Shown: positions 1,784-5,729 of the stretch, one piece after another
Layout: each line of letters begins with the position of its first letter
Numbering within the stretch: position 1 is the stretch's first letter
IMG/VR virus record: IMGVR_UViG_2695420658_000001
Origin: a virus
Lineage: Duplodnaviria > Heunggongvirae > Uroviricota > Caudoviricetes
DNA length: 5,729 bases
Strand: one strand, 5' to 3'
Notes under the pieces: generated by a model
Told to the model about the DNA's origin: nothing
Seen by the model: the letters and a program-made list of their open reading frames with translations, nothing else
The model's database searches: none
Translations under genes and position numbers: made by a program

Positions 1784-2296
1784 TGCGCCATGAGTTTATT
1801 TTACCTTATCCGCCGACGGTGAATACTTACTGGCGACGTCGTGGCAGCACATATTTTGTATCAAAAGTTGGTGAGCGTTATCGCCGTGATGTGACGCTAA
1901 TTGTTCGCCAGCAGCGGCTGAAATTAAACCTGTCCGGAAGGCTGGCGATAAAGATTATTGCAGAGCCACCGGATAAGCGCCGTCGTGACNNNNNNNNNNN
2001 NNNNNNNNNNNNNNNNNNNNNNNNNNNNNNNNNNNNNNNNNNNNNNNNNNNNNNNNNNNNNNNNNNNNNNNNNNNNNGGAAGACTGGCGATAAAGATTAT
2101 TGCAGAGCCACCGGATAAGCGCCGTCGTGACCTGGACAATATCCTGAAAGCACCACTGGATGCGCTGACGCATGCCGGACTACTCATAGACGACGAGCAG
2201 TTTGATGAAATCAATATTGTGCGCGGTCAGCTCGTTCCTGGTGGGCGACTGGGCGTGAAGATTTATGAAATCACAGGTGATAACGATGGCGCGTGA
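1783..2296 (+). CDS. rusA: RusA Holliday-junction resolvase, interrupted by an N-run and duplicated flank
   Basis: N-terminal part '[21 protein letters not shown]...[10 protein letters not shown]' and C-terminal part '[23 protein letters not shown]...[18 protein letters not shown]' match the RusA pattern, including the DxRRRDLDN catalytic block. AGGAGG lies at 1767-1772. As given, the two halves are in different frames; removing the 88 N plus one 54-nt duplicate copy (142 nt) restores a single 120-aa ORF. Confidence 0.85.
1936..1989. repeat. 54-nt left copy of the duplication flanking N-run 1
   Basis: ggaaggctggcgataaagattattgcagagccaccggataagcgccgtcgtgac matches 2078-2131 with one mismatch (g1941 vs a2083). 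Confidence 0.9.
1990..2077. other. N-run (88 nt), unresolved sequence or scaffold gap
   Basis: Run of n flanked by a near-identical 54-nt duplication inside rusA. Confidence 0.95.
2078..2131. repeat. 54-nt right copy of the duplication flanking N-run 1
   Basis: Matches 1936-1989 at 53 of 54 positions. Confidence 0.9.
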
Positions 2297-2672
2297 TATT
2301 CAGCAGGTTATGGAACGGTGGGGGGCTTGGGCTGCAAACACTCATGAAGATGTATCCTGGGCGTCGATCGCTGCTGGTTTTAAAGGGTTAATTCCGTCGA
2401 AAGTGAAATCACGCCCTCAGTGTTCTGATGATGATGCAATGATAATTTGTGGCTGTATGGCCCGGTTGAACAAGAAAAATCAGGATTTGCACGATTTGCT
2501 GGTGGATTATTACGTAGGTGGAATGACTTTTATGAGTCTGGCACGGAAACATGGGTGTTCGGATACCTGTATTGGCAAGCGCCTGCAGAAAGCGGAAGGG
2601 GTTATTGATGGCATGTTGATGATGCTTGATATCCGGCTGGAGATGGACAGATACGTAGAACGAATTATGTAG
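2286..2672 (+). CDS. quuD: Q-family late-gene antiterminator homolog (QuuD-like)
   Basis: 128-aa ORF '[61 protein letters not shown]...' closely matches my recollection of E. coli DLP12 QuuD. Its start overlaps the rusA 3' end (ATG 2286, rusA stop 2294-2296). A promoter-terminator cassette follows immediately downstream. Confidence 0.8.
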
Positions 2673-2676
2673 GTGC

Positions 2677-2706
2677 TTGACCAGACACATTGTCCGGGGC
2701 TATATT
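2677..2706 (+). promoter_or_regulatory. candidate late promoter (PR'-like): TTGACC, 18-nt spacer, TATATT
   Basis: -35 TTGACC at 2677-2682 and -10 TATATT at 2701-2706, beginning 5 nt after the quuD-like stop. A terminator lies about 75 nt downstream, as in lambdoid PR'/tR' arrangements. Confidence 0.4.
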
Positions 2707-2713
2707 CCTCACG

Positions 2714-2731
2714 CGCCAGCAAAATCTGGCG
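2714..2731 (+). promoter_or_regulatory. stem-loop in the predicted late leader (CGCCAG-caaaat-CTGGCG)
   Basis: Perfect 6-bp inverted repeat at about +1 to +20 of the predicted transcript, with no T-run after it. Possible pause or qut-associated RNA structure. Confidence 0.3.
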
Positions 2732-2767
2732 TCGGGATTGGAACCCCGGATAGAGACCGCGACAGAC

Positions 2768-2791
2768 ACACGCCGCGAGCGTGTTTTTTAT
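2768..2791 (+). terminator. rho-independent terminator (tR'-like)
   Basis: Stem ACACGC (2768-2773), loop cgcga, stem GCGTGT (2779-2784), then TTTTTATT. It is + strand specific; the reverse-strand hairpin has no T-tail. Confidence 0.55.
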
Positions 2792-2965
2792 TGTCGTATG
2801 CACGCGCACATCTGAATTATGGTGGGGCGCATGGGGGAGCTGAAAAGCTCGCCGGTCGGTTTCCCGGTAGTTCCAACCCTGTGCGTCTCACCACCCGATG
2901 ATTGGAACCTGACGGTGTTGACAGTTTCAGGTTTGCAGTTTACATTTCCCCGCGGTGCTCAAAAC
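2770..2965. repeat. 196-bp direct repeat, copy A (identical to 4535-4730)
   Basis: Perfect identity at a constant offset of 1765 nt. Copy A ends exactly at N-run 2. Confidence 0.95.
2918..2946 (+). promoter_or_regulatory. sigma70-type promoter TTGACA, 17-nt spacer, TACATT (inside repeat copy A)
   Basis: Consensus -35 TTGACA at 2918-2923, 17-nt spacer, -10 TACATT at 2941-2946. Confidence 0.45.
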
Positions 2966-3026
2966 NNNNNNNNNNNNNNNNNNNNNNNNNNNNNNNNNNN
3001 NNNNNNNNNNNNNNNNNNNNNNNNNN
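2966..3026. other. N-run (61 nt), unresolved sequence or scaffold gap
   Basis: Run of n directly after repeat copy A. Confidence 0.95.
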
Positions 3027-3048: not shown

Positions 3049-3648
3049 ATGGCGCATATACAACTGATCAAACAAACCTCTTCCGGATTACTTCTCCCGG
3101 CGACGCCGGAGAGTTGCGATTTTCTGCATCAAATCAAAACAGGTGAGTGGATACACGCAGACTTTAAGCGTGTGCGTAACTACGCATTCCACAAGCGTTT
3201 TTTCAAACTCCTGCAACTGGGTTTCGATTACTGGACTCCGGTCGGTGGGGCGATCACGCCTCGCGAACGAAAACTGGTGTCCGGTTTCGTTGATTACCTG
3301 TGTGAATCAGTAGGCCGGGAACATACGCCAGCTCTGAGCGAAGCCGCAGAGCAATATCTGAATACAGTTGCGACACGCAGAACCCGGGATACGGCATTGC
3401 TAAAGTCGTTTGAGGCTTTTCGCGAGTGGGTAACCATTCAGGCTGGATTTTACACCGAACATTTTTATCCGGACGGTAGCCGCGGGCGTCGGGCAAAATC
3501 CATCGCTTTTGCGAATATGGACGAAACCGAGTTTCAGCAGGTTTATAAATCTGTTCTGAATGTGCTGTGGAACTGGATTCTGTTCCGTAAATTTTCCTCT
3601 CCGGAACAAGTCGAAAATGTGGCCGCGCAGCTGCTGGAGTTTGCGTAA
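3049..3648 (+). CDS. hypothetical lambdoid nin-region protein (resembles the DUF1367 family)
   Basis: 199-aa ORF with GGAG at 3038-3041 seven nt upstream of ATG 3049. Its stop TAA 3646-3648 overlaps the next gene's ATG (TAATG). The frame is open into the N-run, so the start could lie further upstream. Family assignment is from memory only. Confidence 0.65.
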   Translation: MAHIQLIKQTSSGLLLPATPESCDFLHQIKTGEWIHADFKRVRNYAFHKRFFKLLQLGFDYWTPVGGAITPRERKLVSGFVDYLCESVGREHTPALSEAAEQYLNTVATRRTRDTALLKSFEAFREWVTIQAGFYTEHFYPDGSRGRRAKSIAFANMDETEFQQVYKSVLNVLWNWILFRKFSSPEQVENVAAQLLEFA

Positions 3649-3938
3649 TGGTGGATTTACGTAAAGCGGCGCGGGGGCAGATGTGCACCGTCAGAATTCC
3701 TGGCTACTGCAATCACGATCCGGAAACGTCTGTGCTGGCGCATTACCGACTGGCGGGAACGTGCGGAACAGCGATAAAGCCACACGATATGCAGGCAGCG
3801 ATTGCCTGTAGCTCGTGCCACGATTTAATCGACGGGCGGGTAAAAACCAGCGATTACACCAAAGAAGAATTACGCCTGATGCATGCAGAAGGTGTTTTTC
3901 GCACACAAGAAATCTGGAGAAAGGAGGGATATTTATGA
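3648..3938 (+). CDS. ybcO: YbcO-like protein (DUF1364, putative nuclease of lambdoid nin regions)
   Basis: 96-aa ORF 'MVDLRKAARGQMCTVRIPGYCNHDPETSVLAHYRLAGTCGTAIKPHD...IACSSCHDLIDGR' matches the E. coli DLP12 YbcO pattern (MADLRKAARG...VRIPG.CN..PETSVLAH.RL.G.CG...KP.D...IACS.CHD.ID.R). Translationally coupled on both sides. Confidence 0.8.
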   Translation: MVDLRKAARGQMCTVRIPGYCNHDPETSVLAHYRLAGTCGTAIKPHDMQAAIACSSCHDLIDGRVKTSDYTKEELRLMHAEGVFRTQEIWRKEGYL

Positions 3939-4489
3939 TTTACCCAACGAATACAGGAAAAAGCGGAGAACACCTTCGTCTCACCACGCTGGAAAGTGTC
4001 TGGATTCAGGGAAAACTACGTATGTGGGGGCGCTGGTCGTATATTGGTGGCGGTAAGACGGGGAATATGTTTAACCTGATGTTGACCTCTAAAAAGCTGA
4101 CAAAAACGGCAATTAACGAGGCGCTCCGGAGGATGAAAAAAGCAGGTCTGAACAAGTCTGAACTTGAGGCTTTTTTGCGGGATATGATTAACGGTAAGCA
4201 AAAGAGCTGGCTGGCGCATTGTACTGATGCAGAGGCGTTATGTATTGATCGGGTCATAAGTGAGGTGCTGGCAGAGCATCCAGGATTGATTAGCGTCCTT
4301 CGGCAACGGTATGAGGGGCGGGGGATGACCAAACGCAAAATGGCTGAACTGCTGAATGATGCACACCCGAAATGGAGTTTAAGAACCTGTGAAAGACGCA
4401 TTGAGCATTGGCTAAAGGTGGCAGAATTTATTTTGTACAAACCAATGGTTATGGCTTTTGGTATAGAGAAAAAAGTTATTGCTTTTTGA
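3935..4489 (+). CDS. putative late-gene regulator, candidate second Q-like antiterminator (184 aa); function uncertain
   Basis: Strong RBS AAGGAGGG at 3921-3928 and ATGA overlap with the ybcO-like stop. N-terminal 'LRMWGRWSYIGGG' echoes the 'ERWGAWAAN' motif of the QuuD-like protein. C-terminal 'VLRQRYEGRGMTKRKMAELLNDAHPKWSLRTCERRIEHWLK' resembles a sigma region-4 / HTH segment. It is followed by the same 196-bp promoter cassette as quuD. Confidence 0.55.
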   Translation: MIYPTNTGKSGEHLRLTTLESVWIQGKLRMWGRWSYIGGGKTGNMFNLMLTSKKLTKTAINEALRRMKKAGLNKSELEAFLRDMINGKQKSWLAHCTDAEALCIDRVISEVLAEHPGLISVLRQRYEGRGMTKRKMAELLNDAHPKWSLRTCERRIEHWLKVAEFILYKPMVMAFGIEKKVIAF

Positions 4490-4534
4490 CGTAAAAACTG
4501 CTTCAATTCTTGTACGCTTCGCAAAGCTGTACCN

Positions 4535-4730
4535 ACGCCGCGAGCGTGTTTTTTATTGTCGTATGCACGCGCACATCTGAATTATGGTGGGGCGCATGGG
4601 GGAGCTGAAAAGCTCGCCGGTCGGTTTCCCGGTAGTTCCAACCCTGTGCGTCTCACCACCCGATGATTGGAACCTGACGGTGTTGACAGTTTCAGGTTTG
4701 CAGTTTACATTTCCCCGCGGTGCTCAAAAC
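4535..4730. repeat. 196-bp direct repeat, copy B (identical to 2770-2965)
   Basis: Perfect identity. A single ambiguous base n at 4534 sits immediately upstream, inside what would be the terminator stem. Confidence 0.95.
4683..4711 (+). promoter_or_regulatory. sigma70-type promoter TTGACA, 17-nt spacer, TACATT (inside repeat copy B); candidate late promoter
   Basis: -35 TTGACA at 4683-4688 and -10 TACATT at 4706-4711. A terminator-like hairpin with T7 tail begins about 30 nt downstream of the predicted start site. Confidence 0.45.
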
Positions 4731-4746
4731 ACCTCGAAAGCGGTAT

Positions 4747-4776
4747 CCACACCCGATAGCCATGTGGTTTTTTTGT
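4747..4776 (+). terminator. candidate rho-independent terminator (weak stem, strong T-tract)
   Basis: CCACA (4747-4751) pairs with TGTGG (4763-4767) across an 11-nt loop, followed by seven T (4768-4774). The stem is short, so confidence is moderate to low. Confidence 0.4.
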
Positions 4777-4917
4777 GTCCAGAATTCTTGGTTTATGACC
4801 GGGTGTGCGGCTAATACAATACCAGCAATGGAAATACGCCCGCCGACTTTCGACGGTTTTGAGCGCCCGGTCACCCTCTCAAAAGGGGTAAATCAAAATA
4901 TTCGAAAGGACATGTCT

Positions 4918-5481
4918 ATGAATCGCACGTCTATTGAAAAACTCCCGTCACTTACGCATAACCATCTTCCTGTCATGACAACAGAGCTGCTGGCTGATTT
5001 GTACGGAACAGAGCGCCAGCGTTTGACAAACAATTTCAATCGAAACAAAGAACGGTTTATAGAAGGTAAACATTTTTTCCTGATAGAAGGTGATGCGTTA
5101 CGAGAGTTGAAGAACGAAAACTCTTTAAGAGTTTCTGTGAAAATTGCCCGTAACGTTCGCTCCCTCATCCTCTGGACAGAACGTGGCGCAGCCCGTCACG
5201 CCAAAATGCTCGAAACCGATCAGGCGTGGGAAGTGTTCGAAAAACTGGAAGACTGTTATTTCAACCAGAAACAGCCACCAGCGGCACAAAACACATCTAT
5301 CGAAAATGATGGATGCGCATTACTGAGCCACTTCGATAAACACGGTCAGGTTGAGTTCACGGAAAAGGTACCCGCCGATGCGATGGTATGTACTCTGGAA
5401 CGGTTTAAATTTTATCTGGAGCAACACGGGTGGATCGTTGCCCGTAAAGAGCAACTGGTGGAGCGGTTGATGCGGTTTTAA
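4918..5481 (+). CDS. ORF6N-domain (KilA-N / Bro-N-like DNA-binding fold) protein, antirepressor-like; C-terminal about 75 aa unassigned
   Basis: 187-aa ORF. 'PVMTTELLADLYGTERQRLTNNFNRNKERFIEGKHFFLIEGDALRELK...LWTERGAARHAKMLETDQAWEV' fits the ORF6N pattern (VM..DLA.LYG.E...L...RN.ERFPEDF.F.L...E...LK...WTE.G.A...L..D.A). AAGGA at 4906-4910 precedes ATG 4918; ATG 4912 is the alternative start. Confidence 0.75.
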   Translation: MNRTSIEKLPSLTHNHLPVMTTELLADLYGTERQRLTNNFNRNKERFIEGKHFFLIEGDALRELKNENSLRVSVKIARNVRSLILWTERGAARHAKMLETDQAWEVFEKLEDCYFNQKQPPAAQNTSIENDGCALLSHFDKHGQVEFTEKVPADAMVCTLERFKFYLEQHGWIVARKEQLVERLMRF

Positions 5482-5512: not shown

Positions 5513-5549
5513 NNNNNNNNNNNNNNNNNNNNNNNNNNNNNNNNNNNNN
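5513..5549. other. N-run (37 nt), unresolved sequence or scaffold gap
   Basis: Run of n. The 24 nt directly after it (5550-5573) exactly repeat 5357-5380 from inside the ORF6N gene. Confidence 0.95.
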
Positions 5550-5562
5550 TCACGGAAAAGGT

Positions 5563-5588
5563 ACCCGCCGATGAGCGGGTTTTTTTAT
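5563..5588 (+). terminator. rho-independent terminator
   Basis: Stem ACCCGC (5563-5568), loop cgatga, stem GCGGGT (5575-5580), then TTTTTTAT. Confidence 0.6.
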
Positions 5589-5636
5589 ACCTGAAAAACG
5601 GCACAGGACGTTAAACGTGCTGGTGGTCAGATGAGT

Positions 5637-5665
5637 TTGCAGATGTGATGACATATGGTTATTAT
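5637..5665 (+). promoter_or_regulatory. candidate promoter for the tRNA gene (TTGCAG, 17-nt spacer, TATTAT)
   Basis: -35 TTGCAG at 5637-5642 and -10 TATTAT at 5660-5665, placing the start site a few nt before the tRNA 5' end at 5675. Confidence 0.35.
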
Positions 5666-5674
5666 TCTGCCTCC

Positions 5675-5729
5675 GGCCCTTTAGCTCAGTTGGTCAGAGC
5701 GAGCGACTCATAATCGCCAGGTCGCTGGT
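5675..5729 (+). tRNA. ileZ: tRNA-Ile (anticodon CAU, lysidine-type, ileX/ileZ-like), 5' portion; truncated by window end
   Basis: GGCCCTTTAGCTCAGTTGGTCAGAGCGAGCGACTCATAATCGCCAGGTCGCTGGT closely parallels E. coli ileX as I recall it. D-arm AGCTCAGTTGGTCAGAGC; anticodon loop CTCATAA with CAT at 5709-5711. Met versus Ile2 cannot be fully settled from the anticodon alone. Confidence 0.8.

Follow-up and report, generated by a model that had tools for sequence, protein, structure and literature searches.

In lambdoid prophages lysis is controlled by Q, a switch that allows RNA polymerase to pass a terminator and enter the lysis and late genes, and in some phages genes for toxins or other cargo are found downstream of Q. 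A published scheme of three Q families cites PF06530, which corresponds to Q of phage 21 (Q21), PF06323, which corresponds to Q82, and PF03589; PF06576 is not among the families cited (PMC9388147). At the phage 21 promoter PR' (OL657228), a Q-binding element (QBE) lies in the spacer and is followed by a CACTAT -10 element, 5 nucleotides, a TAAGCT sigma-dependent pause element (SDPE) at +2 to +7, and then a terminator, tRNAs and a class II holin. Within Q21 itself, residues 28-57, comprising the linker between helices 1 and 2 (H1 and H2), H2 and the H2-H3 linker, refold into a torus, narrowing the RNA-exit channel most tightly at T54 (bioRxiv 10.1101/651190). Here we compare with this system a gene at positions 3935-4489 (plus strand) of a 5,729-nucleotide stretch of Caudoviricetes DNA (IMG/VR record IMGVR_UViG_2695420658_000001; the whole stretch is called the window below), which encodes a 184-residue protein of the DUF1133 family (PF06576).

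By analogy with Q21, this gene quite probably provides a Rac-like or lambdoid prophage with its late-gene antiterminator (Q), which would work by a Q21-type mechanism. The protein is already known in that it is catalogued, is very common in prophages and is called Q-like by several databases. New here are a firm link between DUF1133 and the solved Q21 structure, together with two structural differences from Q21, and a corrected assignment of the promoter, pause element and terminator, with a predicted binding element that falls into natural specificity classes.

Relationship of the DUF1133 protein to phage 21 Q

The open reading frame (ORF) runs from an ATG at 3935 to a TGA at 4487-4489 and was confirmed to carry both motifs quoted in the original prediction, namely RMWGRW at residues 29-34 and the C-terminal string LRQRYEGRGMTKRKMAELL...SLRTCERRIEHWLKVAE at residues 122-164. 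A program-made ORF list opens the same frame at an upstream GTG (3815); all DUF1133 homologues begin with MIYP, supporting the ATG at 3935 over this GTG. A GGAGG sequence (3923-3927) lies 7 nucleotides 5' of the ATG, which overlaps the stop codon of the upstream ybcO-like gene (ATGA, 3935-3938), and the gene is translationally coupled to that neighbor.

When compared with family models, residues 1-176 of the protein matched the DUF1133 model over its entire length (positions 1-176 of 176; E 2e-107, 356.7 bits against a cut-off of 23.1), and a weak, partial match to the Q21 family PF06530 was confined to residues 69-163 (29.4 bits against a cut-off of 26). The two families also met from the other side: Q21 scored 87 bits on PF06530 and 22 bits on the DUF1133 model, while proteins 81% identical to Q21 reached 34 bits on the latter, over its cut-off. 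Neither the Q-lambda model (PF03589) nor the Q82 model (PF06323) was listed for the 184-residue protein at E up to 0.1, and no NCBIfam model matched it. Comparison of individual sequences gave the same relative, as BLASTP aligned residues 14-181 with Q21 at 24% identity (E 1e-7), the best match of phmmer among PDB sequences was Q21 (E 4e-4, covering both protein ends), and tblastn against phage genomes found the Q/gp23 genes of ST64T, L, ST160 and others at ~26% identity over 91% of the query. When 1.84 billion representatives were searched with phmmer, only a narrow family was returned (70 matches, mostly fragments), and Q21 was not reached. By profile-profile comparison with hhalign, the DUF1133 alignment matched the Q21 alignment with 98.2% probability (E 3e-14; residues 13-184 against Q21 residues 5-158). 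The data support that the 184-residue protein is, as judged from its sequence, a long-form, divergent member of the phage 21 Q family. This full-length homology, spanning DUF1133 and PF06530, bears out the earlier proposal of a divergent Q-family antiterminator and leaves no need for the other option offered at the time, another type of late regulator.

Existing annotation is divided on the protein. It belongs to PHROG 753, 'anti-termination protein Q-like', and close relatives are called 'antitermination protein Q' or 'prophage antiterminator' in GenBank phage records and 'DUF1133 family protein' by the Prokaryotic Genome Annotation Pipeline (PGAP); the NCBI and Pfam label is 'DUF1133, unknown function'. 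Shigella proteins are the closest, with deposited sequences at 100% identity.

Across 55 aligned sequences, taken from DUF1133 proteins and the relatives of Q21 and of QuuD, no more than five columns were invariant: W31, G32, W34, C96 and D98. The window encodes a second Q-like protein at 2265-2672, a QuuD relative in which the corresponding N-terminal motif reads ERWGAW, and a WGxW motif shared between the two had been reported. Because W31, G32 and W34 are invariant across all three subfamilies, this sharing is read as common descent. The other protein has 135 residues as an ORF, or 128 if counted from its Met8, where its homologues begin; the measured difference in length is thus 49-56 residues, in agreement with the approximately 55 first given.

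The structure of the 184-residue protein was predicted with AlphaFold from the three-subfamily alignment, giving a mean predicted local distance difference test (pLDDT) score of 72, ~90 for residues 98-175, and a predicted template modeling (pTM) score of 0.60. When this model was searched against the PDB with Foldseek, ranks 1-11 were all Q21 structures (probability 1.0) and nothing else of note was found. The protein is thus predicted by the model to adopt the Q21 fold, and profile-profile comparison and structure prediction, two of the checks that had been proposed for it, both returned Q21. Another model, built from 20 DUF1133 sequences only, was discarded, as its pLDDT was 55 and its Foldseek output mere noise.

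Three parts of Q21 can be followed in the model. The first is helix 1 (residues 18-37; 3986-4045), defined by the invariant columns, the alignment to Q21 and the model itself, which carries W31-G32-x-W34 (4025-4036); this region aligns to Q21 residues 5-31, where H1 ends at W23-G24-A25-W26. Next comes the segment equivalent to the Q21 torus, or nozzle (residues 38-97; 4046-4225), which was delimited by gaps in the BLASTP, hhalign and MAFFT alignments and is ~31 residues longer than in Q21 and QuuD-type proteins. The extra residues, at approximately 40-70, are predicted to form two to three short helices with low to moderate confidence (pLDDT 43-74). The segment terminates in S91...C96-x-D98, equivalent to T54...C58-x-D60 of Q21; S91, C96 and D98 are invariant within DUF1133, C96 and D98 are found in all three subfamilies, and T54 of Q21 aligns with the invariant S91. 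The third part is a helix-turn-helix (HTH) resembling sigma region 4 (4325-4456), with a first helix at residues 133-143, a short turn, and a recognition helix at residues 149-174 (SLRTCERRIEHWL...). An HTH like that of region 4 of extracytoplasmic function (ECF) sigma factors had been suggested for the C terminus; the resemblance stands at the level of the fold, and no Sigma70_r4 or Sigma70_r2 model matched in Pfam or NCBIfam at E up to 0.1.

Gene order, scaffold junction and promoter cassette

Complete genomes and contigs free of N show a consistent gene order, in which DUF1367 (NinB-like), DUF1364 (YbcO) and DUF1133 are followed by a short non-coding cassette, tRNAs, a class II holin, an RrrD endolysin, Rz and terminase. 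The DUF1133 gene thus occupies the position of Q genes of the Q21 family in these genomes and contigs, an arrangement broken in the window by a junction at 4534. Of 5426 complete E. coli genomes, 3622 contained matches to the region. A tRNA gene starts at 5675 and continues to the end of the window at 5729; it is tRNA-Ile in the matching complete genomes and the first of an Ile, Arg, Thr, Gly cluster between the Q cassette and the holin.

Several features mark the window as a gapped scaffold. Stretches of N occupy 1990-2077, 2966-3026 and 5514-5549, and one lone 'n' stands at 4534; there are also an exact 196-nucleotide duplicate (2770-2965 = 4535-4730), a 24-mer of the ant gene repeated past the last gap (5357-5380/5550-5573), and a further repeat at 1936-1989/2078-2131. 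The single 'n' appears to be a scaffold junction, judging from the downstream sequences of loci with identical proteins: all other loci with the identical C-terminal region continue from GCTGTACC into GCGAGGCGAATAGCAG and on to a terminator, and the window alone enters the isrK terminator at the 'n'. The 4534 junction was absent from the 5426 complete E. coli genomes, from IMG/VR and from the 118 compared loci (numbered with an L). Furthermore, the two sides of the junction occur separately elsewhere. One contig (L039) carries RusA, the QuuD-like Q, isrK, C4 and ant as a single stretch equal to window 2078-2965 plus 4731-5420, while another contig (L042) and a complete genome (L002) carry DUF1367, YbcO, DUF1133, the cassette and tRNA continuously. 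From these sequences, the window appears to interleave two late-control cassettes, RusA/QuuD-like Q/isrK/C4/ant and DUF1367/YbcO/DUF1133/tRNA. With its gaps and repeated contig ends, the window gives no safe basis for inferences from gene order across these points.

We also considered DUF1133 followed by C4 and ant as a real insertion. The order DUF1133, isrK, C4, ant is natural for other alleles, as in an O157:H7 prophage (L004) and a Salmonella prophage (L013). For the window allele, no isrK module followed the gene in any N-free contig or complete genome carrying it, and a real insertion is less likely: the window has an 'n' at the junction, stretches of N and duplicated contig ends, its junction is found neither in the 5426 genomes nor in IMG/VR, and there are contigs that separate the cassettes. 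Judged by sequence, the other Q gene (2265-2672) is the most likely owner of the promoter-terminator elements at 4535-4776. Hence the original prediction, which made DUF1133 the last gene before the promoter-terminator cassette, holds for N-free contigs and complete genomes and fails for the cassette that follows from 4535 in the window, joined as it is through the 'n' at 4534; the terminators proposed for readthrough tests, 4747-4776 and 2768-2791, lie in the isrK/C4/antirepressor module that goes with the other Q gene.

The cassette that does belong to DUF1133 starts while still inside the gene, at its 3' end (4479-4518), and breaks off at 4534. Alignment of 117 loci anchored on a conserved motif gave a common layout: TTGnnn (-35), a 17-bp spacer ending in TGn, TT[CAG]AAT (-10), 5 nucleotides, TA[ACGT]GCT, a leader of ~60-70 nucleotides, and an intrinsic terminator. 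This architecture is common to Escherichia, Shigella, Citrobacter, Klebsiella, Enterobacter, Buttiauxella and Pseudescherichia. In the window, all elements being on the plus strand, the candidate -35 is TTGCTT (4479-4484), the TTG being fixed 17 bp upstream of the -10 in all genera; the spacer occupies 4485-4501; and the extended -10 consists of TGC plus TTCAAT (4499-4507, TTCAAT at 4502-4507), the TGn and TT[CAG]AAT being kept in all loci with the cassette. TACGCT (4513-4518), a -10-like element at approximately +2 to +7, follows at the same distance from the -10 (N5) as TAAGCT in phage 21, where transcription starts one base before TAAGCT; by this analogy the start site would be near 4512. 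In the window, TTVAAT-N5-TANGCT is present a single time, where 0.01 occurrences would be expected. TTGACG (4486-4491), which overlaps the stop codon, was rejected as the -35 element, as it is 21 nucleotides from TACGCT and only 10 from TTCAAT and the anchored alignment puts it in the spacer.

In natural DUF1133 loci a terminator ~75-80 nucleotides downstream closes the leader RNA, which folds into a 5' hairpin and the terminator hairpin (z -4.3). A terminator scan of the window placed such a hairpin, ACCCGCCGATGAGCGGGT followed by a T run, at 5563-5587 on the plus strand, before tRNA-Ile (5675 onward), and window 5575-5729 is 100% identical to the sequence after the cassette in four of the compared loci (L040-L043). 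The natural target terminator of the DUF1133 protein would be the one now at 5563-5587; its stem adjoins an N gap and the duplicated 24-mer, and its exact sequence is doubtful.

Co-variation, proposed mechanism and alternatives

The recognition helix and the 5' part of the spacer fall into matching classes, and they do so across genera. Helices of the type TCRRRI[DE] are found with spacers of the type [AG]nTGAGC[AC] (11 unique combinations), TCE[STN]RI with TTGCGCG (8 unique combinations), and TCE[RK]RI, the class of the window, with ACG[TC]A[AT]AAAC (8 unique combinations); among the unique combinations, helix and spacer classes pair without exception. This pairing is independent of the transcribed region, since TGAGC is found with the CGGGACGT as well as the TCGCAAAG leader, and TTGCGCG also accompanies the former and ACGYAWAAAC the latter. 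As the helix classes are interleaved on a tree of the N-terminal 130 residues and the pairing is nonetheless kept, the HTH and the promoter seem to have been exchanged together several times. The TCRRRID class uses [AG][AT]TGAGCA, which is the 8-mer of both Q21 QBE subsites (ATTGAGCA, AATGAGCA), and the Q21 helix reads TCRREVD. Spacer positions 1-12 are likely, on this sequence evidence, to be the Q-binding element, for which the candidate in the window is TTTGACGTAAAAAC (4485-4498, plus strand), in the 5' part of the spacer and including the stop codon at 4487-4489. The locus has both a TA[N]GCT at the position of the phage 21 SDPE and a spacer element that co-varies with the recognition helix.

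In loci of Enterobacter, Citrobacter, Klebsiella and related genera with TCRRRID-type DUF1133 genes (L017-L019, L024-L029, L032), [AG][AT]TGAGCA lies directly 3' of the -35; the stretch examined there reached from ~20-45 nucleotides upstream of the gene stop to ~10 nucleotides past it.

We propose that the promoter overlapping the gene's 3' end (4479-4518) would carry, in the 5' half of its -35/-10 spacer, a short element to which the C-terminal sigma-region-4-like HTH would bind, while a newly started RNA polymerase would be held by sigma at the -10-like TACGCT at approximately +2 to +7. The protein would then load onto the paused polymerase through its N-terminal WGxW helix and the next segment, which would be inserted at the RNA-exit channel, and the modified polymerase would pass the intrinsic terminator ~75 nucleotides downstream and read the tRNA, holin/endolysin/spanin and late genes. 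Direct support comes from the homology and predicted fold, the gene position, the conserved cassette architecture and the co-variation of helix and spacer; by analogy with Q21, we infer DNA binding, pausing, loading and antitermination by the DUF1133 protein.

A number of observations weigh against a Q21-type antiterminator. Q21-family sequences were part of the alignment behind the model that gave the structural match, and the DUF1133-only model was too poor to search with. The -35 and -10 hexamers are weak, and a simple promoter scan did not call the DUF1133 promoter. Co-variation among related prophages may partly mirror co-inheritance of adjacent DNA, and kinship inflates the association; moreover, one variable DNA subsite is evident where Q21 has two direct repeats. 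Literature searches found no functional study of any DUF1133 protein, nor the term 'DUF1133' in any of 8 million papers, and no functional study of Rac-SA53 or of the Q or irsA of the Rac prophage. Finally, two differences touch the working parts of Q21. The insertion of ~31 residues falls exactly in the nozzle segment and is modeled at low confidence, and therefore the details of RNA-exit-channel engagement may differ; and the 13-residue minor-groove loop of Q21 (residues ~106-118) is deleted in DUF1133, which leaves a plain helix-turn-helix in place of the HT[loop]H of Q21. We regard it as unlikely that these two changes make DUF1133 a mechanistically distinct Q, either with a larger or differently closed nozzle or with a plain HTH by which a lone protomer would read one DNA site. 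If so, the three natural helix/spacer classes would constitute a simple, swappable recognition code for retargeting antitermination.

We hold it rather improbable that, in spite of the Q function of the family, the copy in the window has lost its function as a relic of a decayed or cryptic prophage. The closest proteins come from Shigella, in which prophages frequently decay; in S. flexneri SFBU1023 and E. coli ECMA0423 (L037, L038, 3001-3114) one copy of the gene breaks off after codon 38 and runs into unrelated insertion-sequence (IS)-like sequence; and the window is too fragmented to reveal an intact prophage. Against such decay, several independent assemblies (L039-L042) have the same unbroken ORF, and the Shine-Dalgarno sequence, the ybcO coupling, the promoter, TAnGCT and the downstream tRNA region are all kept.

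We consider very improbable a conventional DNA-binding activator or repressor that would act on the late promoter at initiation through the sigma-region-4-like HTH and would not travel with RNA polymerase. The homology to Q21 is full length and includes the N-terminal helix, WGxW and S...CxD, in or near the polymerase-contacting parts of Q21; a -10-like element stands at +2 to +7, as at phage 21 PR'; and the strong intrinsic terminator ~75 nucleotides past the promoter in every genus makes sense only if it is overridden. That the protein is a promiscuous, host-directed antiterminator or toxin like AntQ of Gifsy-1 instead of an operon-specific switch is barely credible, for while AntQ over-expression disturbs termination genome-wide and kills cells (PMC4825925) and some DUF1133 genes, like antQ, lie directly upstream of isrK/C4/antirepressor modules (L004, L013), AntQ is a different protein (PF06323), and the strict pairing of helix and spacer classes argues for a specific DNA target.

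With a Q21-type antiterminator as the preferred reading, DUF1133, whose gene is among the commonest prophage genes of E. coli, Shigella and Salmonella, is tied to a solved structure and gains an annotation and a testable mechanism. The predicted promoter, pause element and protein-binding site, along with the natural helix/spacer pairings, provide ready-made specificity swaps. The general picture of Q protein action is unchanged by these findings, and their importance is modest.

The second Q gene, neighboring modules and known systems

The other Q gene of the window, at 2265 (probable start 2286)-2672, encodes a short Q21-family protein that scores 176 bits on PF06530 and is 85% identical to QuuD. 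Directly 3' of it are a promoter, TTGACC-18-TATATT (2677-2706), and the 77-nucleotide isrK RNA (2713-2789) with its terminator. By analogy, isrK looks like the short, terminated PR' transcript of the QuuD-like Q, comparable to the lambda 6S RNA, and its terminator would be a Q target. Promoters of the isrK type sit after three kinds of Q gene, namely the Q82-family AntQ, the QuuD type and the DUF1133 type (window 2677-2706; L004 ~6435-6470; Gifsy-1 primer 1510, taken from PMC4825925 S4 Table). Their 5' spacer halves differ (GACACAAACAGTTAT, AGACACATTGT, CAATCTGTTAT) and their 3' half, CCGGGGC-TATATT, is common; as far as sequences go, the differing 5' halves would fit a Q-specific binding site there.

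With scores of 71 and 50 bits, respectively, Rfam models identified a P1/P7-type C4 antisense RNA and the a1/b1 sites that it targets at window 2700-2752, 2815-2898 and 4580-4663, upstream of an ORF6N antirepressor gene (4912-5481), which constitutes an immunity module of the phage P1 ant/c4 kind within a lambdoid late-control region. In both the window (4797-4880) and the O157:H7 prophage L004 (6800-6883), the leader of the antirepressor gene strongly matched sRNA-Xcc1 (RF02221; 77 bits, the cut-off being 53); the family was described from Xanthomonas. The Salmonella prophage L013 has two isrK plus C4 modules 3.3 kb apart (290-476 and 3588-3768), each followed by an ORF6N antirepressor gene, and a secreted-looking ORF of 254 residues (5128-5892), which may encode an ADP-ribosyltransferase of the pertussis-toxin kind, lies downstream of the second.

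Among described systems, AlpA of Pseudomonas aeruginosa (PDB 7XYB) was far below Q21 as a match to the DUF1133 protein, and a sequence relation between the two was not detected. The DUF1133 protein lacks region 2 of ECF sigma factors, resembles their region 4 at the fold level only, and is not a sigma factor. AntQ of Salmonella Gifsy-1 (PMC4825925) is a Q-type gene directly upstream of isrK, a C4-like RNA and an antirepressor, the same arrangement as for some DUF1133 genes (L004, L013); its sequence, judged by the cloning primer, is of the Q82 family and unrelated to DUF1133. The idea that AntQ is itself a DUF1133 protein was rejected, as this primer, ATGAACACTCAATACCTCCAG, encodes MNTQYLQ and matches a PF06323 ORF. 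QuuD-type proteins (QuuD of DLP12 and the 2265-2672 gene) belong to the same superfamily as DUF1133 (PF06530, WGxW, CxD), which implies the same role, and both types have an isrK-type cassette next to them in some prophages. The pairwise similarity between the QuuD-like and DUF1133 proteins is marginal (E 0.014), and QuuD-type proteins, at 123-135 residues, lack the N-terminal 12-20 residues and the 31-residue insertion and have a different C-terminal helix.

The comparison with Q21 (PF06530; PDB 6P18, 6P19, 6P1A, 6JNX) is the closest. The DUF1133 protein has 184 residues against 162, shares ~24-26% identity, and differs by its ~31 additional nozzle-segment residues and by the missing 13-residue minor-groove loop; it shows one clearly variable DNA subsite, whereas Q21 has two 8-bp direct repeats, and its cassette has an extended -10 (TGn) and a leader of ~75-80 nucleotides compared to ~50 for Q21. 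The two proteins are nevertheless alignable over their full length and share WGxW, S/T...CxD, TC[RE]R in the recognition helix and P..AF in the tail, and their genes have the same position and promoter geometry, with a spacer element, a TAAGCT-type element at +2 to +7, a leader, a terminator, tRNAs and a class II holin.

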